64,000 nt of DNA from contig JAGVXK010000018.1 in the NCBI GenBank assembly GCA_018303825.1, positions 17,028-81,027 on the forward strand, written 5' to 3'. Shown piece after piece: positions 37,214 to 53,476 of the stretch; positions within the stretch are counted from its first letter, which is position 1; every line of letters begins with the position of its first letter. This DNA comes from Candidatus Pacearchaeota archaeon (GTDB lineage Archaea; Nanobdellota; Nanobdellia; Pacearchaeales; GW2011-AR1). A program made the position numbers and the translations under genes. The notes under the pieces were generated by a model, which saw only the letters and a list, made by a program, of their open reading frames with translations, had not been told where the DNA came from and made no database searches.

Positions 37214-39045
37214 TAAATAATAAAAGAGCACAGCTGGCAATATTTGTTATTATTGCAATAGTATTGGTCGCCGGGATAGGAGCTTACTTTTTGATAAAAG
37301 GCAAGATTGGACCTGGTGCAGTCAGTTCTGAGTTTTCAAGTGTTTATGAATATTATTCTTCATGCATTCAGGAAAAGACCTCTCAAGCTGTTGATATAGC
37401 GGGAAGCCAGGGCGGGAAAATAGATGTTGGCAATTACATTCTTGGAAGCGAGTATGCTCCATTTTCTTCCCATTTGAACTTTTTGGGTTTTCCAGTCCCC
37501 TATTGGTTTTATGTTTCTGGAAATGGGGTTGTAAAAGAGAATGTCCCTTCTAAGGGCGATATACAGAATGAAATTGCTGATTACATAGAGAATAATATTG
37601 GAAATTGTGATTACGAATCTTTTTATGCAAAAGGTATAACTATTAAATTTGGAAATCCTGTTGTAAAGGCAACTATTAATGATAACAGCGTTTCTGTTAG
37701 TGTGAGTGCAAAAGTTGTAGTTAGCAAAGGTGGTCAGACTTCCAGCAAAAACTCGTATAGTGTTAATGTGAACAGCAAATTTGGAAAGTTTTATGATATC
37801 GCCCAAAATATTTATAATAAAGAAAAGATTGATGCATTTTTGGAAAATTACACAGTTGATGTTTTAAGATTATATGCTCCTGTTGATGGTGTTGAAACAA
37901 GCTGTAGCCCTAAGGTCTGGAAAACATTGGATGTTGAAAATGATTTGAAAGATGGTTTAGAGGCAAACATTGCCGCGATTAAGTTCAGGAGTACAGGGGA
38001 CAAGTATTTTGTTGCCGGAAATGTTGATGAGAATGTTAATTTGATTTATTCAAGGAATTGGCCGACCAAACTGCAGATTATCGGAAATAATGTTGATAAT
38101 GCTTTGATGATTGCACAGCCTCTTGGAAGCGAGCAGGGATTGAATTTGATGGGATTCTGCTATATTCCATATCATTTTGTTTATGATTTAAGTTTCCCAG
38201 TAATGGTGCAGATTTATGATGATAACGAAATCTTCCAGTTTCCAGTGGTTGTTATAATAGATAAGAATGTTCCCAGAACAGCAGAACTTGTTAATTATTC
38301 ACAAGAACAAGATTTTGATCTGTGTGTATTTAAAACGCAGGATGCCACAATTGGAATTTACAATGTTGATTTGAATAGAGTTAATGCAAATCTTACCTAC
38401 AAGTGTTTGAATCAGGAATGCAATCTTGGAGAAACAACCAATGGGGAGTTTACAGGGAAGGTTCCTGCTTGTGTAAATGGACTGGTGGTTGCAAGAGCAA
38501 ATGGATATGCTGAGAAGAAACAAATATTCTCAACTAATTCTGAATCTAGCACACAATTAATTTTAGACAGGGAATATAATGTAGAAGTCAGTGTAGATGT
38601 TGGTTTAAAGGAATTCAATCAAAATGCCATTATTGCTTTTGAAAATAACGATACAGGGCAGATAGTAAGTGCTATTCTTCCAGGTGTTAAAAATGTCAAA
38701 TTGACAGAAGGCAATTATCTTATCAAGGTTTATGCTTACGGGAATTCAAGCATAGTTATTCCAGAAAGCAAGAAGACAGAATGCAGAGATATTCCTAAAC
38801 CAGGTATATTTGGATTCTTTGGAGGCACTGAGGAGAAATGCTTTGATGTGACCATTCCAAGTACAAGAGTAGATTCTGCTCTGATTGGTGGTGGAAAAGT
38901 ATATACATATTTCTTGACAAGTGATTTGGAAAAAGGAAAAATAAAATTAAAAGCAGATGAATTGCCGAAACCAACAACCATTGAACAACTACAATACAAT
39001 TTTGAAAGTTTCGATTCATTAAATTTGGGGGTTGAATTTGAATAA
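37210..39045 (+). CDS. Large pilin-like surface protein, 611 aa, class III signal peptide
   Basis: MINNKRA|QLAIFVIIAIVLVAGIGAYFLI; beta-rich with Cys pairs. Confidence 0.82.
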   Translation: MINNKRAQLAIFVIIAIVLVAGIGAYFLIKGKIGPGAVSSEFSSVYEYYSSCIQEKTSQAVDIAGSQGGKIDVGNYILGSEYAPFSSHLNFLGFPVPYWFYVSGNGVVKENVPSKGDIQNEIADYIENNIGNCDYESFYAKGITIKFGNPVVKATINDNSVSVSVSAKVVVSKGGQTSSKNSYSVNVNSKFGKFYDIAQNIYNKEKIDAFLENYTVDVLRLYAPVDGVETSCSPKVWKTLDVENDLKDGLEANIAAIKFRSTGDKYFVAGNVDENVNLIYSRNWPTKLQIIGNNVDNALMIAQPLGSEQGLNLMGFCYIPYHFVYDLSFPVMVQIYDDNEIFQFPVVVIIDKNVPRTAELVNYSQEQDFDLCVFKTQDATIGIYNVDLNRVNANLTYKCLNQECNLGETTNGEFTGKVPACVNGLVVARANGYAEKKQIFSTNSESSTQLILDREYNVEVSVDVGLKEFNQNAIIAFENNDTGQIVSAILPGVKNVKLTEGNYLIKVYAYGNSSIVIPESKKTECRDIPKPGIFGFFGGTEEKCFDVTIPSTRVDSALIGGGKVYTYFLTSDLEKGKIKLKADELPKPTTIEQLQYNFESFDSLNLGVEFE

Positions 39046-42000
39046 TGGCCTTTAGAAAAGCCCAGGGAAAGCTAAGGTTCATTAGTGAAAGGACGATGGT
39101 CAATAAATTGTTGATGTTGATGTTAATTGTTATAATTGGATTGGTACTTGGAGCTAATTATGTGGGTGCGGATTATACTTCTTCATTCGCAGGATATGGC
39201 AGCAGCTATTCAAGCGCAAGTTATCAATACCAACCAAGCTTTCAGACTTACTATGGAAATGATGTGAATACTTATTGGCCCATATTAAATGATAAAGATG
39301 TCTGCAAAGCAAGGCAGGATATGCTTTTACAAGTATCACCTGCAGGATGCCAGCCAATGGTTGTGAGAAGCGATTTATTGGCTGATCAGAATGTGCCGGT
39401 ATTTTGCCAGATTGATGCACTGCAGGTTAATCCTTTGATTGACATAAAAGAAATCAAAAACATAAATTTCAGAGGAAATTATCCCAAAGAAGTTGCAGGA
39501 GTTGGATTTCATCCAGCAAGGGCTGCATTGAATACAAGAGACAGGCTTCTAGGAAGTCCATTAATAAATAACATTGGATATGTGGTAGTTATCCTTAAAC
39601 AAACTAAGAACGAGAGCTCATTGCCTAAATTCGTTAATCTGACTTTGACTGGAAAGTTAGAATATAATGCAGGAAATGCATATGGAATAGGCACAAATGA
39701 ATTTTATCTTGAGCCTACAGATGATAATCAATGGGAAAATGCGAAGATCGCGAATAGTTTTTGGAATGGAAGATATTTCATAAGATTATATGATGTCGAT
39801 GAAACTTCTGCTTTAGTCTCGATATATGATGGGGACAGGGAAATTTCTAAGACGAGAATAAAACTTGGAGAGACTTCAGCTCCAATGTATCTTCCTGGAA
39901 GTTACTGTTCTTTTGGTCTGACGACAACTTATACAGGGCTTGCACAGTCTGATAAAAAAGCCAGAATAGAGATAAGCGATGAAAAAGGAACAAATAATCT
40001 TGATGTTTATCAGGGAAGCGAGTTTTTGAATGGAAGATGCAGAGTGAGCGAGATATTAGTAGATTCACAGACAGGAAGCACGGGAAGTGTAAAGATTGCA
40101 TGCGATAGTGATTTGATAAAATTGGAAATGAGGCCAAATCTATATGTTGAGAATCTGCCGTATGGAAGAACAAGTTTCAATGACATAGGAGCGAATAAGC
40201 AGGAATGCAAAGTTGATTTCAACGATGAAAAGAGTTATAGAATAACAAGAGATGTGGTTAAGGAAGCCAGCGGTGATTCTTATAGTTCCTGGACTACTTT
40301 GGAGATTTACAGTAATGATAAAAAAGATTGGACAAGTAGTTTCAGCTTGGATGATGCAACTAAAGACAAGATAAGGAATGCACTTGCGAATGCATGTGAT
40401 TTCAGAGATGATAAATTCTTGACTTCTGATGGAAAAACAGTCAATGATGTTGCAGAGAAAGCGTTCAATGATGCAATTGATTCATATGAAGAAGTTGCGA
40501 AGGATTATACTTCTGAGAGACAGGCTGCTACAGAGGGAGTTGCCAGATATGGAGAACTGGCATTAAGAGCTGCTCTTGATTTGGTTCAAGAGGCAACTTC
40601 AAAGAATTACGCAAAGAAGGAAACAAAATCAAGGTTATTGAATTTGTTCATTAGTTTATATCCTGAGAGTGCAAAGTTATATCAGAGCCAGAGGGATGCA
40701 CTATATCAATTAGATTCTAGTATCTCAACTAAATCTGTGAATGTCGATAATAAGTTCAGGACAATAAGACTTGTAAGCTTAAATAATCCTGAAAGCGCAA
40801 ATGAAAAGGCGAAGGCTAAGTTTACTTATGGCGGCAGAATTCTTGAATTAGTTAAAGGAGAAGCTAAGCCATTAAAGACAAATGCAATGATTAATGTCAC
40901 AAGCTTCGATGCTTTGCATGCAACTATAAGAACCAACTGCGTTACAAAGGATAATGGATATGAAATAAAGACTGAAAGCGGGAAGCCAGTCTATCAGTCT
41001 TCTATAACTCTCAGCCTTGGAGAAAGCGAGAATGTGTGCGGAGAGCCTCTTGTCTTCAAAGATACTGATTTGAAGAAAGTTGCTAAGATAAGAATCAGCC
41101 CTACTGCGTATGGCCCTGAAACAGAGACAAATATATCTGTCAAGATTGGAATTGAAAAGAGAGCAATACAATTGAGTCCTGAAAAGACAAAAGATATGAT
41201 TCTTAATATAAATAAGAGCATACAAAAATGGGAAAGCATTTCAAAGAGTTTAGTAAAGGTAGAAACAGGGTTGAAGGCAGCTTGTTTTGCAACTTCTGCT
41301 GTGCTGACTGTCAAGACTTTCCTTTATGGGATAGATGGAACTGCCACCGCAAGACAGAAAGTGATGACTGGAGATTATGGGTGGAACAAGAGATGCAACG
41401 ATGCGATAACTAAGAAGTGGCTTGATGTAAATGCAAATGGTGGAGAATTTGAACAGGGAATAGACAAGAATGTTAATTATGGAAGCATAATACAATGCAT
41501 AAATGATAATACTGCATCAATTGAAAAGGATGTTCAAACTACGAAGAATGCTCTGGTAGATACAAATAAAGTTGTGAAGGTTGCTCAGGATAGCGCCACC
41601 ACTAAGGGAATATTAAATCAAGATTTGGCTACCAAGGCAATGATAGATAAAATAGGAGCAGACTGCAAGCAATTTATAGAATTGCTTCCTGCAGTTGTTA
41701 GAGATTCAAAGACTACAATTTATCCAGTTACATTATCTCAATCTAGAGATATTTATGCGAATTGCCTGATGCTGAAACAGAATCCGAATGATCAGAATGC
41801 TCTTCTTTCTATGAAATCATTTTCAGAAAATGCGAAAAATACAATGACAGATTATGAGAAATTTGCAAGGTCTCAGGCATCAAATGATATTCTCCCTATA
41901 AATACTGGAACTGGAACAGCATTGAAAGGGAAGTTCTACCCAATTGTAGGAAATACCATTGGAGAAATACCAGTAAGCGGGGCGAGCATACCAGCAGGAG

Positions 42001-45000
42001 CAACTCATGCAGTAAGATTAGATAATCCCGCAACTATAGAATATGATAATGGCATCTGGGGCAAAGTATCTATTGGAGCACCATTTATAGTTGTTGGAAC
42101 AGAATTGAATGGGAAGTTGCGACCTCTCGATGTATTCAAGTATGAACCTAAGTTTGAAAATGGAAAAGTGACTTCTGCAGTTATTTCTCAGATACCAAGT
42201 GAGAGTTATCAGGGTTCTAGTGGTGCTAGTTTGTTTATGTCAAAAAATGGCTATACAGGATTTGAAGAATTCGGGCAAGGACTTTATGGAAATACTATAA
42301 GAGAACAGGACAGAGCAGTATTATATTTTATATCTGGGCCCGATAAGGATTTGCCAAGCCAGGTTCCATTTGATGTTAACAATGGATGGTATGTAAAGGT
42401 TCAGGCGAGTTCATTTAGTCTTGGGAGCAATGCAGTAAAGAGTTATGATGCTTCTGGATTGCCTAAAGACTGGCAGATATGCAATGTTGGAAGCGATGGA
42501 ATGATAGGAAGTAATGATGATTGCCAGGCATTTAATCAGGCTTCTCTTGGAGCTACTATTCTTGGATTAGATGCAAAAACTTCGCAGGATTTGGTGCAGA
42601 AGTCCCAAAAAGCAATTTTGGATGCTGCTTCTCAAAAGAATACAAATACAAAACAAGTGAGCATATTTGGGCAGCCAATGAGAGTTGATTTCCAGAATCC
42701 AATGGAGAATGTACAATGCTCTAACTTTATGACTGCCGGAGATTGTAAATTATTATTCAATGTCTGCGACCCAGTTATATGTCCTGCGAGCAGATGCAAT
42801 CTTGGAGGGGCTTATAGGGTAGCGAATGTTCAACAGACAGGAATTGTGGGCTCTGCATTATTGTGTTTGCCAAATGCAAGAGAAGGAATTCTTCTTCCTG
42901 TTTGCGTTTCGGGAATTAGAAATGGAATCGATGCTTATGTTTCTTTATTGAAACAACATAGAGATTGTTTACAGCAGAATTTAGACACTGGAGAATTAGT
43001 TGGAGTTTGCGATGAAATACAATCTATTTATACTTGCGAGTTCTTCTGGAGACAGGTGGCTCCTATTGCTAGTATGTTATTGCCTAAATTGGTTGAAAAT
43101 GTTTATTCTGGAGGACAGGGAACAGGTGTTAATGGGGGAGGAGAATATTTATTCGTTCCTCAAGCATGGGATAATGCAAAGAATAGCATGGACTACTTTA
43201 CTAATTATTATGCGGAGAATACATTTAAAGCATTCCAAATAAGAAGTGTTGAAGAAGCAGGAACAGAAGTTTGCAGAGGATTTGTTTCTTTGAAAGCTCC
43301 AACATCTATAAAGACTTTATTAGAACCGGATAGTCCTCCTCAGTTTTATGCAAGATTTGATTCAACCACTTTCTCGACGGTAACTGTGCCTGCCACTGCA
43401 CAGTATAAAGTATTTTACTTTATCAATGCAGGAAATGATGCAGGAGTTTATTATTCAGTTTATTTGAAGAGTCCTCCTGAATCAGGATATTATTATTCAA
43501 ATCCAACAATTCAGATAGCAAATGGATATATTTCTAAAGGACAAAGTTCGAGTCAGACTTTGGATAAGACTGCTCCTGAAGGATATAAAGAGCTATGTGT
43601 AAGAATAAATAATGAAGAAGAATGCGGGTTCAAACAGGTTTCAACAGACTTCAGCGTAAATTATCTTAGAGACCAGTACGCAAAAGACCAGCTTACTAAC
43701 ACAAATATTCAAACTCAGGCAGAATGTGTATCTGGAACATCTAGTCTTGCAGCTGTTGGGGCTAATTTGAACTTGCAGTCTGCCGCTCAGGAGGCGGCAA
43801 TGCCTGATATTTCTCAGAGAGGGATAGTAAGAATATGTGCAACATTGAATCCTGGAGGTAGCACAGACCCTACAAGATATATTCCTGTTGGAATTTGCGG
43901 CGATGCTAATTTGAAGTGCTGGCTCGACAAGACAAGTGTAAACAATGCAATAACTGATGCTAATCTCGGAGTGAAGAATGCAACCTTACAAGAGTTAGAG
44001 CAAACGAATATTGATGCTCTTATTGCACAAGGAGAAATTCTAAATAATGAAGTGGCTGTTTCAAGCATAAAAGAAATAAATAACAGAAAAGATATTTTAA
44101 GGGCGAATTTAGATTCTAATAAGAATATTATCAGCGATGCACAAGCCTTGGAATTGTCAATTAATGATTTGTATGGCAAGCTGGTATTGAATAATCATAA
44201 GGCATGGCTGTTGCTTATAAGGGCTGAGGTAAAAGCAATGGAAGCTGAATATTATATGAAGAATATAGCTACAAAGACATTACCTTTAAGCAGAGTCAGC
44301 AGCACAACAACCGCTGGAATAACACAAACACATAGCATAAGTTTTGCCCAGGATATAGATGCTGCAACAGGAATGGATGTCACAAGAATATTTATAGATA
44401 GAAACCCTGACAGTTATTATTATATCTATAATGATCCTGAAAGAGGAAATATATTATACACTAATAAAATAAGTGGACCAAATACTCAAGAAGATAATCA
44501 GGTTGGAACAGTAGACAGAAGCAATATAATACAAGTTTATGCGAGTTATGCAGGAGATACAGATTTAAGCGTAATAAATGGGCAGAGATTAACATTTGAT
44601 AATTCTGGAATTCCGCAAGCATTAACAGTGAAAACAACTGCTCCTGCGGCGTCAGCAGCTGCAACAACTGCAAATGAATTAGTATTTACTTTCCAAGATG
44701 GCACAATTTCTTGGAACTTAGAATATAGATTTCACAATGGTAAATGGCAGGCTACAAATGGGGGTGTACTTACAACAATACCTAATCCTTTACCACAAAG
44801 TTATAGAGATGCGTTTACTGCTACCACTGTTGCAAGTATGGAAAAACTTTCTAAAGCAAGTTCGCTTCAGGAAGGATTGAAGATATTAATAGATAGAACA
44901 TTGGCAAATAATGAAGGAGGATGGTTTGCAAATACTGATTTACTTGCTGGCAAATTCGATTTGGATAGTAAGGGAGAGTTTACAAGTTCTTCTATTAGTG

Positions 45001-45200
45001 GGATTAATTCCATTTATCGATATGGTTCGAATGGGTGGGAATATTATGCTTCAGGCACAAATCGTGTCTGGATTCCGGTAAAGGATTTAGTTATTTCTAA
45101 GGATAAGATGAATCTTGTTTTTGACAGTGATAAGACTCTTGTTAATCAATTATCAAATCAAGATTTCTATGGTGGTGCGTTGATATTGTTTAGTTCTTAA
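39045..45200 (+). CDS. Giant secreted Cys-rich protein, 2051 aa
   Basis: N-terminal signal MVNKLLMLMLIVIIGLVLGANYVGA; Cys clusters (CSNFMTAGDCKLLFNVCDPVICPASRC); TAATG coupling to the upstream gene. Confidence 0.85.
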   Translation: MAFRKAQGKLRFISERTMVNKLLMLMLIVIIGLVLGANYVGADYTSSFAGYGSSYSSASYQYQPSFQTYYGNDVNTYWPILNDKDVCKARQDMLLQVSPAGCQPMVVRSDLLADQNVPVFCQIDALQVNPLIDIKEIKNINFRGNYPKEVAGVGFHPARAALNTRDRLLGSPLINNIGYVVVILKQTKNESSLPKFVNLTLTGKLEYNAGNAYGIGTNEFYLEPTDDNQWENAKIANSFWNGRYFIRLYDVDETSALVSIYDGDREISKTRIKLGETSAPMYLPGSYCSFGLTTTYTGLAQSDKKARIEISDEKGTNNLDVYQGSEFLNGRCRVSEILVDSQTGSTGSVKIACDSDLIKLEMRPNLYVENLPYGRTSFNDIGANKQECKVDFNDEKSYRITRDVVKEASGDSYSSWTTLEIYSNDKKDWTSSFSLDDATKDKIRNALANACDFRDDKFLTSDGKTVNDVAEKAFNDAIDSYEEVAKDYTSERQAATEGVARYGELALRAALDLVQEATSKNYAKKETKSRLLNLFISLYPESAKLYQSQRDALYQLDSSISTKSVNVDNKFRTIRLVSLNNPESANEKAKAKFTYGGRILELVKGEAKPLKTNAMINVTSFDALHATIRTNCVTKDNGYEIKTESGKPVYQSSITLSLGESENVCGEPLVFKDTDLKKVAKIRISPTAYGPETETNISVKIGIEKRAIQLSPEKTKDMILNINKSIQKWESISKSLVKVETGLKAACFATSAVLTVKTFLYGIDGTATARQKVMTGDYGWNKRCNDAITKKWLDVNANGGEFEQGIDKNVNYGSIIQCINDNTASIEKDVQTTKNALVDTNKVVKVAQDSATTKGILNQDLATKAMIDKIGADCKQFIELLPAVVRDSKTTIYPVTLSQSRDIYANCLMLKQNPNDQNALLSMKSFSENAKNTMTDYEKFARSQASNDILPINTGTGTALKGKFYPIVGNTIGEIPVSGASIPAGATHAVRLDNPATIEYDNGIWGKVSIGAPFIVVGTELNGKLRPLDVFKYEPKFENGKVTSAVISQIPSESYQGSSGASLFMSKNGYTGFEEFGQGLYGNTIREQDRAVLYFISGPDKDLPSQVPFDVNNGWYVKVQASSFSLGSNAVKSYDASGLPKDWQICNVGSDGMIGSNDDCQAFNQASLGATILGLDAKTSQDLVQKSQKAILDAASQKNTNTKQVSIFGQPMRVDFQNPMENVQCSNFMTAGDCKLLFNVCDPVICPASRCNLGGAYRVANVQQTGIVGSALLCLPNAREGILLPVCVSGIRNGIDAYVSLLKQHRDCLQQNLDTGELVGVCDEIQSIYTCEFFWRQVAPIASMLLPKLVENVYSGGQGTGVNGGGEYLFVPQAWDNAKNSMDYFTNYYAENTFKAFQIRSVEEAGTEVCRGFVSLKAPTSIKTLLEPDSPPQFYARFDSTTFSTVTVPATAQYKVFYFINAGNDAGVYYSVYLKSPPESGYYYSNPTIQIANGYISKGQSSSQTLDKTAPEGYKELCVRINNEEECGFKQVSTDFSVNYLRDQYAKDQLTNTNIQTQAECVSGTSSLAAVGANLNLQSAAQEAAMPDISQRGIVRICATLNPGGSTDPTRYIPVGICGDANLKCWLDKTSVNNAITDANLGVKNATLQELEQTNIDALIAQGEILNNEVAVSSIKEINNRKDILRANLDSNKNIISDAQALELSINDLYGKLVLNNHKAWLLLIRAEVKAMEAEYYMKNIATKTLPLSRVSSTTTAGITQTHSISFAQDIDAATGMDVTRIFIDRNPDSYYYIYNDPERGNILYTNKISGPNTQEDNQVGTVDRSNIIQVYASYAGDTDLSVINGQRLTFDNSGIPQALTVKTTAPAASAAATTANELVFTFQDGTISWNLEYRFHNGKWQATNGGVLTTIPNPLPQSYRDAFTATTVASMEKLSKASSLQEGLKILIDRTLANNEGGWFANTDLLAGKFDLDSKGEFTSSSISGINSIYRYGSNGWEYYASGTNRVWIPVKDLVISKDKMNLVFDSDKTLVNQLSNQDFYGGALILFSS

Positions 45201-45327: not shown

Positions 45328-45702
45328 ATGCTACAAAGATACATATTAGAGCATGCTCATAAACATGGATTGTCTGAGAATGAGATTTATTTCACATATA
45401 AAATCTTTTTTGGCACGCTTGTTTCAGAGTCGAGATTAAGGATAATCAATCTTTTGAGAAGTGGGGAAAAGAATGTCTCAGAGATAATAAAAGAATTGAA
45501 TATGAATCAATCAAATGTATCGCATGATCTTTTCAGGCTAAAAAAATGTGGTTTTGTACTCGTTGAGGCTAAAAAGCAATATAGATATTATAAGCTTAAT
45601 GAAAAGACAATTAGACCACTTATGGCTTTGATAGATAAACACATGGCCGAATATTGCATCCACATATTCAGAGCAGACAAGGAGACTAAAAATGGAGAAT
45701 AA
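45328..45702 (+). CDS. ArsR/SmtB-family transcriptional regulator
   Basis: SRLRIINLL..KNVSEI..QSNVSHDLFRLKKCGFV..RYYKL; C-terminal HMAEYC. Confidence 0.9.
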   Translation: MLQRYILEHAHKHGLSENEIYFTYKIFFGTLVSESRLRIINLLRSGEKNVSEIIKELNMNQSNVSHDLFRLKKCGFVLVEAKKQYRYYKLNEKTIRPLMALIDKHMAEYCIHIFRADKETKNGE

Positions 45703-46183
45703 AAATGTTGGATGGATGTTATTAGGAATATCTGTTGTAATAGGAGTATTTATCTTTTTATTCAATAGCACATTGATGGGGGCTGTAAAAAATGCCTGTT
45801 TTATACAGCACGGAGATTTCAAATCTTGCGAGATGTATGACAGTGTGAATTATCAGACTTATTTTGCTCTTGGTATCACGGGTATAATGGTAATTGTCAG
45901 TTTGTTTCTGATATTCTCGAAGTCGAACGAAAAGATAATAGTCAAGAAAGTAAAAGAGAAGAAGATTCAAAAAGAAGTCAATCTTTCATCTTTTAGACCT
46001 GAAGAAAAGCAAGTTTATAATCTTGTCAAAGAAAATGGTGCTATTTTTCAGGGAGATTTAATTGAAAAGACTGAATTTAGCAAAGCCAAAATGACAAGGA
46101 TTGTTGACAAACTTGAGGGCAGCGGTCTTGTGGAAAGAAAAAGAAGGGGCATGACGAATGTTGTCGTGCTAAAGGAAGATTAA
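45692..46183 (+). CDS. Membrane-anchored winged-HTH (MarR-like) protein
   Basis: Two TMs flanking CFIQHGDFKSC; C-terminal GAIFQGDL..SKAKMTRIVDKLEGSGLVERKRRGMTN. Confidence 0.82.
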   Translation: MENKNVGWMLLGISVVIGVFIFLFNSTLMGAVKNACFIQHGDFKSCEMYDSVNYQTYFALGITGIMVIVSLFLIFSKSNEKIIVKKVKEKKIQKEVNLSSFRPEEKQVYNLVKENGAIFQGDLIEKTEFSKAKMTRIVDKLEGSGLVERKRRGMTNVVVLKED

Positions 46184-46198
46184 TAAGATGGAGAAATC

Positions 46199-46441
46199 AT
46201 GAAAGAAAAAGAAAGCAATATTGTCCTTGCAGTAGTGATTGTTTTAGTTATCTTGTTATTTTTTGGAGGATTTGGCATGATGGGTTTTTGGGGAGCAGGA
46301 ATGATAAGTGGATTTTTTGGTGGATTTGGGTTTATGTGGATATTTGGATGGATGATTACGATATTAATATTAGTGGCTCTAATCCTATTCATTTTGTGGT
46401 TAGTTAAACAGTTACAAGGAGGTAAAAAGAAAAATGGGTGA
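46199..46441 (+). CDS. Small Gly/Met/Phe-rich membrane protein
   Basis: FGGFGMMGFWGAGM..GGFGFMWIFG between two TMs. Confidence 0.72.
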   Translation: MKEKESNIVLAVVIVLVILLFFGGFGMMGFWGAGMISGFFGGFGFMWIFGWMITILILVALILFILWLVKQLQGGKKKNG

Positions 46442-46697
46442 TAAATTAGATGCGAAAAAGGCAGGATTAGCTTTGGCTATTGTAGCAGGTATTGCTTATA
46501 TTGCCTGTGCGATATTAGTTGCAGTTGCGCCGCTGGGAACAGTCAATGTGCTCGGGGCCTTATTTCATGGGATAGATATAAGCGAGATAGCAACTACACC
46601 AACTCTTGGAAGAACATTTTTGGGATTGATTGAGATATTTGTACTTGGTTATATTCTCGGCTGGTTGTTCGGAGTTATTTACAATAAAATAAAGTAG
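46434..46697 (+). CDS. DUF5676-like membrane protein
   Basis: AYIACAILV..LFHGID..GWLFGVIYN. Confidence 0.72.
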   Translation: MGDKLDAKKAGLALAIVAGIAYIACAILVAVAPLGTVNVLGALFHGIDISEIATTPTLGRTFLGLIEIFVLGYILGWLFGVIYNKIK

Positions 46698-46741
46698 TTT
46701 TGCGAACATTTATATTTGTTATTTTTTATATATTTGCAAAG

Positions 46742-47455
46742 ATGACAGAATTAAGTAATTTTTTTAATCCTTGGATGGTATTTAGCATGATATTTTTACT
46801 AATTTGGATTATATTTTTTGTTTTCGCTAAAAAATCGAGGAAAGAGATGTTTTTGACAAGCATTCTAACAGCTCCATTTGGTTTAACAGAGATTTTATTT
46901 GTTCCCGAATATTGGAACCCTCCATCTTTATTCAATCTCGCAGCAAAAACACGATTTGATATAGAAAGCATAATATGGTGTTTTGCTGTCGGAGGAATTG
47001 CAGCAATTTTATTTGAATCTATATTCAAAGTAAGACACATTAAAATGAAGGACAAAGAGAGGCATAAAACAAGGCATAAATGGCACTTATTTACTTTAAT
47101 ATTGCCAATTCCAGTATTTTTAATTTTATTTTTCACTACATCACTAAATCCTATCTATACTTCAAGCATTTCAATGCTTGCTGGTGCAATTGGCTCACTC
47201 TATTGCCGTCCTGATTTAAAGAGAAAAATACTTTTTGGAGGTTTGTTATTTTTAGTTTTGTACTTTATAGCTTTCTTTTTGCTCGTTTTATTTTATCCAG
47301 GAATAGTAGAAAGTGTCTGGAACTTAAATGCTATATCTGGAATTCTTGTTCTTGGAGTGCCGTTAGAAGAATTAATATTTGCATTTACTTTTGGCATGAT
47401 GTGGAGCAGCGTTTATGAGCATATTAGATGGTATAAATTATTGAGTTACCATTAA
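46742..47455 (+). CDS. Lycopene cyclase-domain membrane protein
   Basis: PEYWNP..DIESIIWCF..GVPLEELIFAF. Confidence 0.75.
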   Translation: MTELSNFFNPWMVFSMIFLLIWIIFFVFAKKSRKEMFLTSILTAPFGLTEILFVPEYWNPPSLFNLAAKTRFDIESIIWCFAVGGIAAILFESIFKVRHIKMKDKERHKTRHKWHLFTLILPIPVFLILFFTTSLNPIYTSSISMLAGAIGSLYCRPDLKRKILFGGLLFLVLYFIAFFLLVLFYPGIVESVWNLNAISGILVLGVPLEELIFAFTFGMMWSSVYEHIRWYKLLSYH

Positions 47456-47543
47456 ACTATTTGTGACTAATTTCTTCTTTTAAAATGTATGGTGGAACTA
47501 GTTCCGCAAAAGTGCATATATAATTCAATTTCTTGGAAAAGTC

Positions 47544-48266
47544 ATGGAACACGAAAAATATCATGCTGAAGAGCATGACGATATGAAAGGAGGAAAAAAG
47601 TCCAACACTGAGACTACAGTCCAGTATGTTATAATTGCGGTGCTTGTGATCTTACTTATTTACAGTGGAGTAAAGATATACGGAGCGGGCAGTTCTAGCA
47701 TATCAGGAAATGTCGCTATGGATTTAGGCACAGTTTCTGCTTTAGATGTATTGCCAAAGGGAACACCTGCTGTTTATGGAAAAGAGCTTGGAGTATCATA
47801 TAATGATGTCTCTGTAAGCAATCCGCAATTAGCAGATGCTACAATGCAAAAACTGGCAAAATATGAGGATATGCAATTAAATAGCGCGCAAATGGAGAGA
47901 TACATAAGAATTGGGAGCTCGATTGCATGTGAGTATTGTTGCGGTGCTCAAACACTTGTCTTTGAGAATGGAGAAAGAGCTTGTGGATGTGCTCATAGTT
48001 ATGCTATGAGAGGATTAGCAAAATATTTGCTAACTAAGCATCCCGATATAAGTGATATAGAAATCCTAAACGAACTAGGGAAATGGAAAGTTTTGTTCTT
48101 CCCAGGAGTTCACGAGCAAAAAGCTGAAGTTTTGAAAGCAAATGGAATTGACTACACAAATCAAACTGTAGGATATATCTATCTTGCCTCAAACATATAC
48201 CGGGGCGCAGAAAATCAGGCAACTGCAAGTTCAAGCGGAGGTAGTCAGATGGTTGGCGGATGCTAA
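47544..48266 (+). CDS. Single-pass Cys-motif protein ending MVGGC
   Basis: His/acidic N-tail, TM, CEYCCG..CGCAHS, Ser/Gly linker, QMVGGC*. Confidence 0.85.
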   Translation: MEHEKYHAEEHDDMKGGKKSNTETTVQYVIIAVLVILLIYSGVKIYGAGSSSISGNVAMDLGTVSALDVLPKGTPAVYGKELGVSYNDVSVSNPQLADATMQKLAKYEDMQLNSAQMERYIRIGSSIACEYCCGAQTLVFENGERACGCAHSYAMRGLAKYLLTKHPDISDIEILNELGKWKVLFFPGVHEQKAEVLKANGIDYTNQTVGYIYLASNIYRGAENQATASSSGGSQMVGGC

Positions 48267-48326
48267 TAGGGGCTTTTATTTTTTTATTTTTCCCTTAGCA
48301 TACAATTAAATAAAACAAGAGAAAAA

Positions 48327-48575
48327 ATGGATTGCTGTAATACAAAACAAAACACAAAGAAAGAAAACAGAGAAGAAAACATGAAAGGAGGTAGGGACAT
48401 GACAAAGATTAACAAAAATGTTCTGCTGTGGATTATAATTGGAGCACTAGTGATAGCCACAATATTCCTGACATTTAAAGCTTCATCGATAGGTACAAGT
48501 TCCGCACAAGCGACAGCGTCAGCTGCCAGAACCGTAGCATCAACTGCATCTAGTGGAATGGTCGGAGGTTGCTAA
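48327..48575 (+). CDS. Small single-pass protein ending MVGGC
   Basis: MDCC start at 48327, or ATG 48399 after a GGAGGT RBS; TM; Ser/Ala/Thr linker; SGMVGGC*. Confidence 0.82.
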   Translation: MDCCNTKQNTKKENREENMKGGRDMTKINKNVLLWIIIGALVIATIFLTFKASSIGTSSAQATASAARTVASTASSGMVGGC

Positions 48576-48582
48576 AATTAAT

Positions 48583-48834
48583 ATGGAAATAAGAAAAAGC
48601 ACATTATTATGGATTGCAATCGGAGTATTGTTTTTAGCAGTGCTTTTTTTGATGTATAAAGCATCAACTATCTCTGGAAACGCAGTTTCTAGTTCTGGAA
48701 AGCTAGATACAAGTAGTTGGTCAGAAAATGAAAAGATGAATTATGAGATGCATGGAACAATTCCTGCAAGACTGCAAGGAAAAGTAGCATCATCTAGTGC
48801 ATCAAGCGGAGCGGGAATGGTCGGAGGATGCTAA
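48583..48834 (+). CDS. Small single-pass protein ending MVGGC (paralogue of the previous gene)
   Basis: LLWIAIGVLF..YKAS; NEKMNYEMHGTIP; AGMVGGC*. Confidence 0.82.
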   Translation: MEIRKSTLLWIAIGVLFLAVLFLMYKASTISGNAVSSSGKLDTSSWSENEKMNYEMHGTIPARLQGKVASSSASSGAGMVGGC

Positions 48835-48900
48835 CAAAATTTAAACTTTTTATTTTTATTTTTTAATTTAATATTGAGAATTAAACACAAAATGATAAAG

Positions 48901-49449
48901 ATGAACATACGAAATAAGCAAGATAAAAACTATAAATTATTTGGATTTTTAATTTTAATACTATTCGGGATAATCACAGTTATACCTGGTGTTATGGCTC
49001 ATTGCCCTCTTTGCACTGCAGCTACGGTCATTGGTGTAGGGGTAACAAGATCACTAGGATGGGATGATTCTATTGTAGGAGTATTTATAGGAGCAATGAT
49101 AGTCTCTTTAGCTTTATGGGTGAATAATCTGCTAAAAAAGAAAAATATTGGAGGAGGCAATGCCATTCTAAGAATAATTAGCATAGTATTGCTTACCATT
49201 GCTCTTACCTTTTTGAGCTTTTATTATGCAGGAATATTCGGTCCAGCTAACATTTATAGGATATTCGGTATGGAGAAGATTACTTTTGGTGCAATATCCG
49301 GAGGCGTCGTAAGCTTGGCTACTTTTTGGATTAGCAATGAAATAAAGAGAAAGAACAATGGAGATGTTTTGTTCAATTATCAGACTATGGCTATTACATT
49401 TAGTGCATTGATACTTAACGCTTTAATATTTTGGATGGTGTTCAGATGA
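48901..49449 (+). CDS. Multi-pass membrane protein with HCPLC motif
   Basis: MAHCPLCTAA followed by several TMs. Confidence 0.78.
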   Translation: MNIRNKQDKNYKLFGFLILILFGIITVIPGVMAHCPLCTAATVIGVGVTRSLGWDDSIVGVFIGAMIVSLALWVNNLLKKKNIGGGNAILRIISIVLLTIALTFLSFYYAGIFGPANIYRIFGMEKITFGAISGGVVSLATFWISNEIKRKNNGDVLFNYQTMAITFSALILNALIFWMVFR

Positions 49450-49943
49450 AAACTAAAAACTTCATTAAAATAATACTTAAGATAAAAGAAAAGAATGAAC
49501 TAGATTTATCAGCAGGAGAAGATTTAAGCATAGCCTTAATGAATCTTGTAAGCCTGGAAGAGCATTCTTTCTTTAGTTATGTCAAAACAAAAGATGAAAA
49601 GTTTCTTGAGATACTTGAAACATGCAGAGAATTAAGAAAAAGACTGCTTGCTAAATTAGTCAACAAAGATGAGAGCGAGACATGGTGCATGAGCAAGCAC
49701 TTACTTGCTTCCAGCATGAGGATGTATGAAATCGGGAACAGACTCTTACATGAAAATAATATTGAAGAAGCTAAAAAATTATATACGGATGCAGCAGAAC
49801 TATATGCTCTATTTTGGAAACTTAATTTTGATAAAAATATGAGCAAGAAAGATACAATAAAGAGTTATGTGAGCTATAAAGATAAAGAAAAGAAGAGTGT
49901 TTTCTCTGGAATTAAAAAACTGTTGGAGTGTTGTAAAGAATGA
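49446..49943 (+). CDS. Helical protein with EEH, WCMSKH and C-terminal ECCKE motifs
   Basis: LMNLVSLEEH; ETWCMSKHLL; LLECCKE*. Confidence 0.75.
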   Translation: MKTKNFIKIILKIKEKNELDLSAGEDLSIALMNLVSLEEHSFFSYVKTKDEKFLEILETCRELRKRLLAKLVNKDESETWCMSKHLLASSMRMYEIGNRLLHENNIEEAKKLYTDAAELYALFWKLNFDKNMSKKDTIKSYVSYKDKEKKSVFSGIKKLLECCKE

Positions 49944-50395
49944 AAGAACATCACTATAATTATTTGTGGGCTGGAATTATATTAATATCTATACTCGGAA
50001 CTTTCTTTCTAATTAAGATGACTTATGCCAATCCTCTCAATCTGCCAAATTATGCATTTACTAAACAGGCTATAAAGGAAGCTTATTCGTATGCAAAATT
50101 AAATGAAAGTGAACTTGACGGATTGCCTTGCAATTGCGGATGTATGATTGACGTAGCAGGTCATAGCGATGGATTACATTCAAGAGGATTGATAGATTGC
50201 TTTATGCAGGGAGATATAAACAATGGAGGCAAATGGGATAGTCATGCAAGTGAATGCGGATTATGTTATGAAGATGCGCTTTATGCAAAAAATCTGTATG
50301 AACAGGGAAAAGCCAAAGAAGATATTAAGCAAGCATTAGAAGCAAAATATGTGGCACAGACAATAAGCAACAACACAGTTTATGGGACAAAATAA
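49940..50395 (+). CDS. PCYCGC-motif-like membrane-anchored protein
   Basis: LPCNCGC..GH..H..LIDCF..HASECGLC. Confidence 0.82.
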   Translation: MKEHHYNYLWAGIILISILGTFFLIKMTYANPLNLPNYAFTKQAIKEAYSYAKLNESELDGLPCNCGCMIDVAGHSDGLHSRGLIDCFMQGDINNGGKWDSHASECGLCYEDALYAKNLYEQGKAKEDIKQALEAKYVAQTISNNTVYGTK

Positions 50396-50396
50396 A

Positions 50397-50597
50397 ATGA
50401 ATCATAAAGAAAAACACAATCATGGTATTGGGCATATGATAAAAATGGCTTTAGCCTGCATTATACCTTTCGCAATTATCCTTATACTCCTGCTTTTTGG
50501 CGTATCAAGTAAATGGACAACAATTTGGGCTATCGGACTCATGATATTTCTTCATGTCTTGATGATGAAAGATCATTTTAGAGGAGACCCAAAGTAA
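50397..50597 (+). CDS. Small His/Met-rich membrane protein (DUF2933-like)
   Basis: HNHGIGHMIKMALACIIP..FLHVLMMKDH. Confidence 0.68.
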   Translation: MNHKEKHNHGIGHMIKMALACIIPFAIILILLLFGVSSKWTTIWAIGLMIFLHVLMMKDHFRGDPK

Positions 50598-50600
50598 AAA

Positions 50601-51026
50601 ATGGAAATTAAGAAATCTATTGTGTATGGAATATTGTCTGGATTAGGAATACTTTTATTCTTCCTTGCTATTTTAACTACATTTAAAGGTTATGGAATTG
50701 CAGTATATGAATTCAAAAGATTATGGTATTGGCTTATCCCTTTGGCAATAGGTTTTGGAACTCAGATTGGCTTATATTTCTCAATAAAACACGATGCCAT
50801 TATGAAAGCAGGAGTTAAGGCATCTGGGACAGTTTCTGGAGGTTCTATGGTTGTTTGCTGTAGCCATTATCTATTAAGCATAATTCCTATAATTGGCGTA
50901 ACAGGGCTAACAGAGTTTTTAATGGCTTATCAAAAAGGATTTTTTGCCATAGGAATTACTTCAAGTATAGCTGGAATTCTCTTGATGTTAAATCATAAAA
51001 GAAAGATGAAAGGAGGATTATGCTAA
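50601..51026 (+). CDS. Multi-pass membrane protein with CCSH motif
   Basis: GTVSGGSMVVCCSHYL. Confidence 0.78.
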   Translation: MEIKKSIVYGILSGLGILLFFLAILTTFKGYGIAVYEFKRLWYWLIPLAIGFGTQIGLYFSIKHDAIMKAGVKASGTVSGGSMVVCCSHYLLSIIPIIGVTGLTEFLMAYQKGFFAIGITSSIAGILLMLNHKRKMKGGLC

Positions 51027-51317
51027 ATGGAAGAGAAAGAGACAATACATATCAATGGAAAAGTAATCGGCGTAATAGTTATTTTATTGCTTCTTGTATC
51101 AGGCACTTTTTGGATATTCATTCTTCAAAAACAAGCTCATACCTCGCCAAATACGGGCGGAAACAGCAATACTGGTTTGACAACTGCTCCAGCGGATGAT
51201 AAATATAGTAATTTACCTGAGAAATGCAGACCACCGGCAGGAACAGATATAACCCAATGGAAAGAACATTTAGGGCATCATGCGGAATTTCAAGAGTGTT
51301 TAAAATATTTCCCATAG
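51027..51317 (+). CDS. Single-pass protein with C..HLGHH..C motif
   Basis: LPEKCRPP..WKEHLGHHAEFQECL. Confidence 0.72.
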   Translation: MEEKETIHINGKVIGVIVILLLLVSGTFWIFILQKQAHTSPNTGGNSNTGLTTAPADDKYSNLPEKCRPPAGTDITQWKEHLGHHAEFQECLKYFP

Positions 51318-51326
51318 AAATTTAAA

Positions 51327-51548
51327 ATGCATAAACTAAAAATAAAAATAACTGGCTTGTATTGCGCAAGATGTGCTGAACAAATCTCTAAAATGATGTA
51401 TGAGAAATTCAAAATAAAAAGGATAAACTTAGAAATGCAAGACCATATAATGGTTATATCCTCAAATTCAAGTATATTGCGGGGCAGATTAAATAAAGAG
51501 ATAGAAAAGATGGGTTACGGCCCGATTAGCTTTTTGAAAGTTGACTGA
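51327..51548 (+). CDS. Heavy-metal-associated (HMA/CopZ-like) domain protein
   Basis: IKITGLYCARCAEQI..IEKMGY. Confidence 0.82.
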   Translation: MHKLKIKITGLYCARCAEQISKMMYEKFKIKRINLEMQDHIMVISSNSSILRGRLNKEIEKMGYGPISFLKVD

Positions 51549-51970: not shown

Positions 51971-52540
51971 ATGGCTAAAGGCAATAATCAAGATAGTGTT
52001 GTTTCTGATGAAGAGAATGAAAGAATAGCAGAATTAATTAGATATTCTGAGAATCTTGGATGTTATTTTGAAAAAAATTCTTTAGATTACGACACTATTA
52101 ATTTTCTTGCTGTTGGAAAGGTAATTGCCTGCTTAAATCAATATCGGGGAAGAAATGGTGCGGATATTAGGACTATGCTACGCACAGCGGTATATAGGGG
52201 ATTTATTGATGTTCATAGAAGAAGAAGTAGGGAAGTGAGCCTTGATGAAGTTGATTCTGATGGAAGAAAAAAATTTGATTTTGACGAGGAATCTCGTTTA
52301 GATCAAAGAAGGGATTCATATCAGAGAGATTTTCTTTTAGAAAATGTGATAAGGGAAGCGATGTCAAAATTACCTCAAAGGCATAGAACTATCTTAGAAT
52401 TAAGATTTTATCAGGGAATGACTTATTCTGAAATTGCCAGACTATTAGGTAGGAAGCAGTCAACTATAGGAACAAATATCTATTATGGTATAAAAAATCT
52501 TAAGAGGATATTAGCTGGTAAAATTGATTTTAGAAGTTAA
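51971..52540 (+). CDS. Sigma-70 (ECF-like) family protein with region 2- and region 4-like segments
   Basis: TMLRTAVYRGFIDVHRRRSRE (region 2-like); AMSKLPQRHRTILELRFYQGMTYSEIARLLGRKQSTIGTNIYYGIKNL (region 4). Confidence 0.82.
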   Translation: MAKGNNQDSVVSDEENERIAELIRYSENLGCYFEKNSLDYDTINFLAVGKVIACLNQYRGRNGADIRTMLRTAVYRGFIDVHRRRSREVSLDEVDSDGRKKFDFDEESRLDQRRDSYQRDFLLENVIREAMSKLPQRHRTILELRFYQGMTYSEIARLLGRKQSTIGTNIYYGIKNLKRILAGKIDFRS

Positions 52541-53476
52541 TTATTTCTTGGCAGATGCCTTCTCTGTGGCTGCAACTTTTGCCTTTAATTTATCCTCAAA
52601 GCCAAGCCTGTCTATAAGTTCTTTGTATCTATTTCTGATTGTGACTTCTGTTATGCCTGCTACGTCTGCTACTTCTCTCTGTGTTTTCTTTTCATCATTC
52701 ATCAATGCTGCTACATATAATGCGGCTGCTGCAATGCCCGCCGGACCTCTTCCTGATGTCAACTCTGAGATATCTGCTTTCTTTAGAATCTTAAGAGCTT
52801 CATTCTGTGTTTTTGGAGAAAGGTGAAGGATAGATGAAAATCTTGAAATATAATCTTTTGGACTTGAAGGAGTTACTTTTATTTTCAATTTTCTTACGAT
52901 AAATCTATATGTTCTTCCAATTTCTTTTCTTTCAACATCTGAGGCATTTGCAATCTCATCTAAGGTTCTTGGAATGTTGTATGACCTACATGCTGCGTAA
53001 ATACATGCTGCGATGACTGATTCCATTGATCTTCCACGAACAAGACCTCTTTGTAAGACATAATTGTAAACTCTTGAAGCTTCATCCCTTACAACTGATG
53101 GAAGATTTAAAAATGATGCAACTCTTCTAAGCTCAGCCATTGCCAACCTGAGATTTCTTTCAATTGAAGTGGAGACTCTTTCCTGCCACTTTTTCAATCT
53201 TAAGAACTTACGGGTTTGCCCTGCTTCTAATTTATATATATCTGAAATCTCCCCGACGTTTGTTGTTAGTCCTTTATCGAACTTTTGCATGGACATTGGC
53301 GCTCCTGAACGTCCTCTTTTGTCAGATTTATCAAATTGACCTCCAGCATCCTGTCCAGAGTCAACCATTTTTTCTTCGACGATAAGACCGCATTCGTTAC
53401 AGATAACTTCTCCCCTTTGTTCATCATAAGTTAAGTCAACAGAGCCACATTCGGGACAGCGTTTTACGTATACCAT
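52541..53476 (-). CDS. tfb: Transcription initiation factor IIB
   Basis: CPECGS..GEVICNECG Zn ribbon; two cyclin repeats; GITEVTIRNRYKE. Confidence 0.97.
   Translation of the reverse strand: MVYVKRCPECGSVDLTYDEQRGEVICNECGLIVEEKMVDSGQDAGGQFDKSDKRGRSGAPMSMQKFDKGLTTNVGEISDIYKLEAGQTRKFLRLKKWQERVSTSIERNLRLAMAELRRVASFLNLPSVVRDEASRVYNYVLQRGLVRGRSMESVIAACIYAACRSYNIPRTLDEIANASDVERKEIGRTYRFIVRKLKIKVTPSSPKDYISRFSSILHLSPKTQNEALKILKKADISELTSGRGPAGIAAAALYVAALMNDEKKTQREVADVAGITEVTIRNRYKELIDRLGFEDKLKAKVAATEKASAKK

Follow-up and report, generated by a model that had tools for sequence, protein, structure and literature searches.

MerA and related disulfide-relay enzymes are cytosolic flavoenzymes in which a flexible C-terminal tail with two cysteines passes a thiophilic ligand to a buried Cys site. 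In Salmonella, the envelope CxxC proteins of the Scs (suppressor of copper sensitivity) system, members of the thioredoxin and DsbD families, link the maintenance of thiol redox state with copper tolerance, and SoxY, a component of the Sox thiosulfate oxidation system, has the arm motif GGCGG. Intermediates are bound covalently to the cysteine of this Gly-rich, C-terminal swinging arm and pass with it from one partner enzyme to another (PMC5336275). The thiol oxidoreductase CcmH, which has one membrane anchor and is not a thioredoxin, has its redox motif, LRCPKC, in the loop that connects helices 1 and 2; the CXXCH peptide of apocytochrome c becomes linked to it in a mixed disulfide (PMC3884852). 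In CopG, a CxCC motif and a methionine bind a Cys-bridged tetranuclear Cu cluster (PMC7558416). Here we describe three consecutive genes, located in a 64,000-nucleotide window of a Candidatus Pacearchaeota genome (GCA_018303825.1, contig JAGVXK010000018.1, positions 17,028 to 81,027), that encode membrane proteins with the same C-terminal pentapeptide, MVGGC. There is about an even chance that this tail is a tethered thiol arm for Cu(I), mixed disulfides or both on the outside of the cell; the three genes would then represent an extracytoplasmic cysteine-arm module, found in DPANN archaea, that has not been described before. The 240-aa protein is designated BIG and the two small tailed proteins MINI-2 and MINI-3.

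47544-48266, + strand: BIG, 240 aa, ends MVGGC-stop
48327-48575, + strand: MINI-2, 82 aa (first ATG) or 58 aa (ATG at 48399), ends MVGGC-stop
48583-48834, + strand: MINI-3, 83 aa from the ATG at 48583, with the frame also open from a GTG at 48553, ends MVGGC-stop

The module is undescribed in databases and in the literature, and it fails the defining tests of each of the families with which it was compared. BIG may resemble CcmH/NrfF/CycL (PF03918; PDB 2HL7; System I cytochrome c maturation) in its predicted single anchor, outward domain, three-helix core and CxxC positioned between helices 1 and 2, but has five cysteines and a histidine (CE[YF]CC) instead of LRCxxC, additional N- and C-terminal subdomains and the C-terminal Cys tail; CcmH, unlike the BIG cassette, is not accompanied by arm-only satellite proteins. 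With SoxY the cassette shares a cysteine on a Gly-rich C-terminal arm, but SoxY is a soluble β-sandwich protein, paired with SoxZ, in which Gly-Gly follows the cysteine, whereas the BIG model is helical and anchored and cysteine is the last residue. No sox genes, which were not searched for by name, are present among the recurrent neighbours of BIG that could be named, the set that all neighbour identities given below cover. CopG (DUF411, PF04214), a copper-resistance protein, is extracytoplasmic, as BIG is predicted to be, and like BIG has a vicinal-Cys motif, but it is thioredoxin-like and without a C-terminal arm, whereas BIG is modelled as helical and has no PF04214 match, and in related loci DUF411 is encoded by a separate neighbouring gene. 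A C-terminal Cys tail and Cys pairs on both sides of the membrane are reminiscent of the Mer relay, but Mer tails have two cysteines and are parts of cytosolic flavoenzymes. Unlike the Scs proteins, none of the three tailed proteins matches the thioredoxin or DsbD families. In archaeosortase and exosortase signals (PGF-CTERM and others) the motif is followed by a transmembrane (TM) helix and a basic tail, whereas the Cys of MVGGC ends the protein, and, in contrast to the ThiS/MoaD-type carriers, which have a β-grasp fold, a Gly-Gly end and an E1-like or JAMM partner, BIG is predicted to be a helical, membrane-anchored protein. A strictly terminal cysteine, arm-only satellites and a five-Cys plus His loop are found in none of the systems compared.

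Three adjacent genes encode an identical C-terminal tail

The tail sequences are ATGGTTGGCGGATGCTAA (BIG, 48249-48266), ATGGTCGGAGGTTGCTAA (MINI-2, 48558-48575) and ATGGTCGGAGGATGCTAA (MINI-3, 48817-48834). Each begins with ATG (at 48249, 48558 and 48817) followed by GTN GGN GGN TGC TAA, and the differences are all synonymous, which excludes a recent duplication of the tail at the DNA level. In each protein the tail is preceded by a single N-terminal hydrophobic helix and a Ser/Ala/Gly-rich linker. A sequence-only reading of the window had reported the identical MVGGC-stop on three consecutive open reading frames (ORFs) with synonymous codon differences, and this organization of anchor and linker on otherwise different bodies; both are confirmed, the former at the exact coordinates and the latter for all three ORFs. 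MINI-2 and MINI-3, separated by 7 bases, have an anchor region in common (BLASTP E 2e-10), and BIG is unrelated to either except for the tail. No other ORF among the 6,125 with 30 aa or more in the whole genome has an MVGGC end. The genome assembly (805,733 bp, ~806 kb; 35% GC), which with its archaeal TFB gene is that of a DPANN-type archaeon, is 86% complete, a completeness that all genome-wide negatives given below carry. Oligo-T-rich stretches are present 3′ of BIG (48267-48326) and of MINI-3 (48835-48873). These are possible archaeal terminators and would divide the row of genes into sub-units.

The tail is conserved in DPANN archaea

Database searches identified 2,268 homologues of BIG at E ≤1e-3 and 134 of MINI-3, and in each case the MVGGC end is retained by 116 of the 120 best. 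That the tag is under selection at the protein level, as the sequence-only reading had proposed, is thus borne out by both the synonymous codons and this retention in orthologues. An exhaustive HMMER search with BIG of 1.84 billion cluster representatives returned 274 clusters; in the best 150 of these, with 35-66% identity, 123 representatives end in Cys, 96 of them with [M/Q]VGGC, and the remainder are mostly fragments. Rare variants among the 150 end with ...GCG. Alignment of 113 diverged relatives revealed that residues C129, C132, C133, G143, C147, C149, H151, G157, P187, G238 and C240 of BIG are invariant, with the terminal Cys equal in invariance to the five core cysteines. The Gly that precedes it may be replaced by Ala, Ser, Asp or Glu with the Cys retained, and the Met by Gln or Trp. 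The mutual information calculated for tail positions and core columns was uninformative, being dominated by columns of high entropy.

The tail was also sought directly at the DNA level. A degenerate pattern gave 25 matches in 13 of 61 related genomes, versus 1 for the reversed control pattern, and a looser pattern (first codon MWR, to include QVGGC) gave ~153 matches in 86 of 401 genomes of the phylum, versus ~16 for the control. Nearly all matches to the looser pattern are same-strand neighbours positioned 200 to 1,400 bases apart, mostly as adjacent pairs or triplets. With matches so far in excess of the controls, in both the relatives and the phylum, a chance origin of the shared tail is excluded.

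As had been noted from the sequence, the tag corresponds to no named family. Pfam and NCBIfam scans of BIG, MINI-2 and MINI-3 returned no family, the ESM Atlas has only unnamed clusters, and literature searches for the MVGGC pentapeptide and for copper systems of DPANN archaea found nothing relevant. Pfam scans of longer, fused relatives of BIG identified one FKBP fusion and were otherwise uninformative. One homologue of MINI-3 (P0157), 78% identical to the copy in the window, is labelled as from Candidatus Levybacteria, a candidate phyla radiation (CPR) bacterium; this reflects either a binning error or a recent transfer between DPANN and CPR organisms.

BIG is encoded next to small tailed proteins

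Related loci, retrieved with 24 query sequences, provided a sample of 80 genome loci with BIG relatives from Pacearchaeota, Woesearchaeota, Aenigmatarchaeota and Micrarchaeota, and some related loci are labelled Nanoarchaeota in addition to Pacearchaeota and Woesearchaeota. The 80 loci are mutually related, and the counts of neighbours given here and below are therefore not independent. At least one small tailed protein is encoded adjacent to BIG, on the same strand, in 74 of the 80; there are two tailed ORFs in 40 loci, three in 33 and four in one. In the 6 unpaired loci the copy of BIG is truncated, or is located at or near a contig end. Four subtypes of small protein are discernible, namely a plain anchor-linker-tail type, a type with MNYEMHG, a type with MM-x-x-MHP and a type in which NLQNLP precedes the tail. 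In 74 of the 111 small-protein ORFs the Cys of the tail is the only one.

The tails within one cassette tend to be alike. LPxMVGGC on BIG is accompanied by LPxMVGGC on the small protein in two loci (L008 and L009), QVGGC by QVGGC within three cassettes (L074, G199:C6 and G455:C25) and, in the scan of the phylum, adjacent pairs counted by hand were 52 M-M, 2 Q-Q and 0 mixed. This matching of tail context is real but not strict and, as the genomes are related, is a hint rather than a statistic.

MINI-3 has the same anchor, linker and tail as MINI-2 and, in addition, a nearly invariant, Met/His-containing body, W-x-ENE-x-MNYEMHG-x-x-PAR, in which D42, W46, N49, E50, M52, N53, M56, H57 and T59 are invariant. 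Met/His motifs of this kind, present also in one further small subtype, are used by extracytoplasmic Cu(I) sites. In its long form MINI-2 begins with MDCC, a terminus predicted to be cytosolic. This MDCC/CC extension (48327-48401 in the window) is found in 32 of the 80 loci (L026-L105), many relatives having MDCC-x6-8-(G)CCKD, and the Cys codons vary synonymously between TGT and TGC, which shows that the extension is coding and under selection at the protein level. The long form of the small protein would thus carry cysteines on both sides of the membrane.

Within MINI-2, at 48384-48392, there is also a Shine-Dalgarno-like sequence, AAAGGAGGT, followed by the ATG at 48399, from which initiation would yield the 58-aa short form. 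An apparent (M/L)KGG peptide motif, located before the TM helix, has AAAGGAGGN as its codons in ~58 of 64 instances; in the small proteins an in-frame ATG is positioned 1-4 codons further on. Given this near-uniform codon use and the position of the ATG, the KGG motif looks like a Shine-Dalgarno-like element, AAAGGAGG, at the DNA level, with an internal start for a short isoform. The sequence AAAGGAGGA, within the end of gene 50601-51026 (~51005-51015), similarly precedes the start of the next gene. Unlike the small proteins, BIG has a KGG-type site (47586-47594) with no start codon following it.

Predicted structure of BIG

BIG is predicted to be a type II membrane protein with a TM helix at residues ~22-47, a helical ectodomain, a Ser/Gly linker and the terminal MVGGC. 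The fold is predicted with confidence. The AlphaFold2 model of the full protein, constructed from the 113-sequence alignment, has a predicted local distance difference test score (pLDDT) of 87.7, and for the ectodomain, residues 60-240, the pLDDT is 94.1 and the predicted template modelling score 0.91. With pLDDT values of 74-88, the linker and tail are not predicted to be fully disordered. The invariant residues C129, C132, C133, C147, C149 and H151 form a cluster, with the pattern CE[YF]CCG-x13-CGCxH, and in the model C129-x-x-C132 is located between a helix at 114-124 and a helix at 150-165.

When the two independent models were compared exhaustively by VIA-align with 48,161 chains, the periplasmic domain of the Pseudomonas CcmH (2hl7_A) was the only chain with a Z score of at least 5. 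The Z scores are 6.3 and 6.2 (root-mean-square deviation 2.2 Å, 73 of 82 residues aligned), with runners-up at 4.1 and 3.9, although a Z of ~6 is under the level considered safe for this tool and values below 8 can reflect a common arrangement of structural elements. Foldseek searches of the Protein Data Bank (PDB) with the full and domain models returned nothing at E ≤0.001, and a profile search of PDB sequences with BIG gave no meaningful match. The sole segment aligned by hhalign places C129-x-x-C132 of BIG on the CPKC of CcmH, an alignment that is not significant. Our reading of the models is that BIG may work in the manner of a CcmH-type scaffold, without membership of that family. No cytochrome c maturation gene (PF01578, CcmC/CcmF/CcsA) was found in the 86%-complete genome. 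Complex prediction for the tail-less BIG ectodomain with the MINI-3 ectodomain scored 0.22 in both runs, below the mark of 0.32, and speaks neither for nor against an interaction.

Gene neighbourhood

The three tailed genes are part of a row of same-strand genes that extends from 45328 to 51548, in the order ArsR, MarR/DUF7343, a small Gly-rich membrane protein, DUF5676, a lycopene-cyclase-domain protein, BIG, MINI-2 and MINI-3, followed by the HCPLC, ECCKE and PCYCGC proteins, a His-rich small membrane protein, and the CC(S/T)H, Cys/His small and HMA-like proteins. Members of this island that recur near BIG in the 80 loci, or that have a recognizable domain, include:

45328-45702, + strand: ArsR-family regulator at the head of the row (PF01022, E 2.6e-14); homologue near BIG in 22-23 of 80 loci
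45692-46183, + strand: membrane-bound MarR/DUF7343 winged-helix protein (PF24034, E 2.7e-11); 65-67 of 80 loci, the most constant neighbour
48892-49449, + strand: polytopic HCPLC membrane protein, no Pfam or NCBIfam family; 59-60 of 80 loci
49446-49943, + strand: soluble helical ECCKE protein without signal peptide or TM helix, presumably cytosolic; 32 of 80 loci
49940-50395, + strand: anchored PCYCGC-domain protein (PF13798, E 5e-16; NF041379, E 5.8e-14); 21 of 80 loci
50601-51026, + strand: four-TM protein with a vicinal CC(S/T)H(F/Y) within a TM segment, no family match; 51 of 80 loci
51027-51317, + strand: anchored small protein with C...W(K/R)EH(L/M)xHH...C; 43-53 of 80 loci
51327-51548, + strand: HMA-like protein with a CxxC motif (PF00403, weak, E 0.0035, under the family cut-off; MerTP and CopZ models also weak)

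The loop between the two TM helices of the MarR/DUF7343 protein contains two Cys, one His and one Met, and this protein may serve as a one-component sensor of the substance with which the system deals. In the HCPLC protein an invariant ...(M/S/F)A|HCPLCT is positioned directly behind a segment that resembles a signal peptide; if this were cleaved, the mature protein would begin with His-Cys-Pro-Leu-Cys, a potential metal site composed of the N-terminal His and a CxxC. The ECCKE protein ends with a (E/D)CC-x-E that is retained in 28 of 32 relatives, and so provides the island with another conserved terminal vicinal-Cys motif. Only gene 49940-50395 matches PCYCGC (PF13798) or CYCXC (NF041379); hhalign gave the BIG profile a probability of 0.4% against this PCYCGC neighbour, with no relation between the two at the profile level.

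Further companions of BIG in the 80 loci are DUF411/CopG (38 loci), cupredoxin (29), DUF5676 (28-30), HMA (20-25) and DsbA-like thioredoxin (23). A P-type ATPase is encoded in 19 loci, a representative of which scores above the cut-off of the copper-translocating model TIGR01511. The cassette thus travels with copper and thiol genes, and, of the proposals made from the sequence, the best fit is a relay arm of Met and Cys on a tether, partnered by the Cys-motif proteins encoded nearby.

A proposed tethered cysteine arm and its alternatives

From these features we infer a topology, a ligand that may be copper or a disulfide, and a direction of transfer. BIG would be anchored by its one N-terminal helix with the ectodomain directed outward, and the CcmH-like three-helix core would present the Cys/His cluster in the loop of its first two helices. 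Beyond the core a flexible linker would end with [M/Q]VGGC-COOH, and one or two small satellites would have a like anchor and linker and the same tail, with a Met/His motif added in one subtype. A C-terminal Cys is the only position that would set a thiol beside a free carboxylate, here on a long tether, with the invariant Gly-Gly likely to confer flexibility and the Met or Gln four residues before the Cys possibly adding a ligand. Such a swinging arm could take up Cu(I) and/or form mixed disulfides, and exchange these with the five-Cys plus His cluster of BIG, in cis from BIG's own arm and in trans from the small proteins. Exchange might extend to the remaining membrane proteins of the island with Cys, His or Met motifs. 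On the outer side of the membrane, copper and thiol oxidation damage would thereby be buffered or relayed.

The hosts of such a relay have no periplasm and, as far as is known, no small-molecule thiol buffers. DPANN genomes are tiny, yet the cassette is kept in about one-fifth of the genomes sampled. Should the tail function as a cysteine arm, cells without a periplasm would have a novel and highly compact means of dealing with copper or thiol oxidation at their surface, and a CcmH-like redox scaffold would be operating outside cytochrome c maturation. As the motif is short, invariant and easily synthesised, the idea is directly testable. In a more extensive version, which we consider rather unlikely, external arms with C-terminal cysteines, the long isoform with its cytosolic vicinal cysteines, the CcmH-like five-Cys domain and the membrane proteins with Cys pairs would constitute one self-contained tethered-thiol relay, unmatched by described systems, that moves copper or reducing power both across the membrane and along it.

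Several results weigh against the tethered-arm reading. The likeness to CcmH is structural only: PF03918 has no match to BIG or to its 113 relatives by hmmscan, nor to the BIG gene in a search of the genome, and hhalign of the BIG and CcmH alignments gave a probability of 0.6% (E 0.1) against a CcmH alignment that was of low diversity and only enterobacterial. The cluster of five Cys and a His might bind a structural Zn, or be joined in disulfides, and not be reactive. CopA, CopG and cupredoxin are missing from the window; the genome encodes CopA, cupredoxin and a DsbA-like protein on other contigs, and the link to copper at this locus is indirect, through the relatives, the weak HMA match and the PCYCGC protein. 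Met or Gln does not always match between BIG and the small proteins, two loci (L006 and L038) being mixed. The arm might serve copper, a different thiophilic metal, or disulfide exchange alone.

A pure thiol-disulfide relay, with BIG as a CcmH-like oxidoreductase, the tail Cys as the shuttle or resolving thiol in the manner of other enzymes that have C-terminal Cys arms, the small proteins as tethered partners or substrates and copper as only the stress, is possible, if doubtful. It would be consistent with CcmH as the sole structural neighbour, with a CxxC in the equivalent loop, with the DsbA-like thioredoxins in 23 of the 80 loci, and with the single cysteine in 74 of the 111 small-protein ORFs, as a lone cysteine allows intermolecular bonds only. 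However, the neighbours that could be named include no recognizable DsbD/CcdA electron supply, CopG, cupredoxin, copper ATPase and Met/His motifs are commoner companions than redox enzymes, and BIG has no significant sequence link to CcmH. Vicinal Cys pairs are present in a TM segment of gene 50601-51026, at the start of the long MINI-2 form and at the end of the helical ECCKE protein. Together with the weak MerTP match of the HMA-like protein, these pairs would instead accommodate an import relay comparable to MerP-MerT-MerA, from an outer thiol arm to a membrane Cys pair and then to a cytosolic Cys pair. This is very unlikely, as no MerA was found in the 86%-complete genome, the best match to TIGR02053 scoring 53 bits versus a cut-off of 454, and the neighbours in related loci are copper-type.

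Rather than being a working arm, the tail might be recognised as a tag, with the Cys then modified, the chain cut behind Gly-Gly, or the protein joined covalently to a lipid or to a structure at the cell surface. A near-invariant, five-residue extreme C-terminus on otherwise unrelated bodies does resemble sorting and modification tags, and tail variants that match within cassettes would suit one shared recognising enzyme. We regard this as improbable, with no candidate enzyme among the neighbours that could be named, no exosortase or archaeosortase family gene (PF09721) found in the 86%-complete genome, and proteins that are already anchored at their N-termini. The sorting or lipidation signal put forward by the sequence-only reading found no support, as nothing follows the Cys, neither a hydrophobic segment nor any other residue, and none of the NCBIfam sorting-signal models matches the three proteins. 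Disulfide crosslinking, which that reading had listed beside these signals, is a possible role of the tail. The same reading had also raised a pro-form with a Gly-Gly-X end, of the ubiquitin-like or sulfur-carrier kind, or the precursor of a ribosomally synthesised and post-translationally modified peptide (RiPP). For the small proteins the Gly-Gly-Cys ending alone is in favour of this, and it is hardly credible for what are predicted to be type II membrane proteins, BIG being helical rather than β-grasp and the small proteins a TM helix with a low-complexity linker. JAMM, E1-like, radical-SAM, YcaO and flavin decarboxylase proteins, the partner or RiPP enzymes expected, are absent from the neighbours that could be named, and the Gly before the Cys is replaceable by Ala, Ser, Asp or Glu with the Cys kept.

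Other features of the window

A Cys-rich, secreted giant protein of 2,051 aa is encoded at 39045-45200, directly upstream of the island. No homologue of it is present near BIG in any of the 80 loci, and it is therefore not part of the cassette. Downstream, an ORF with a sigma-70 region-4/ECF-like domain (PF08281, E 3.4e-13; 51971-52540) and an archaeal TFB gene (52541-53476) are arranged tail-to-tail.

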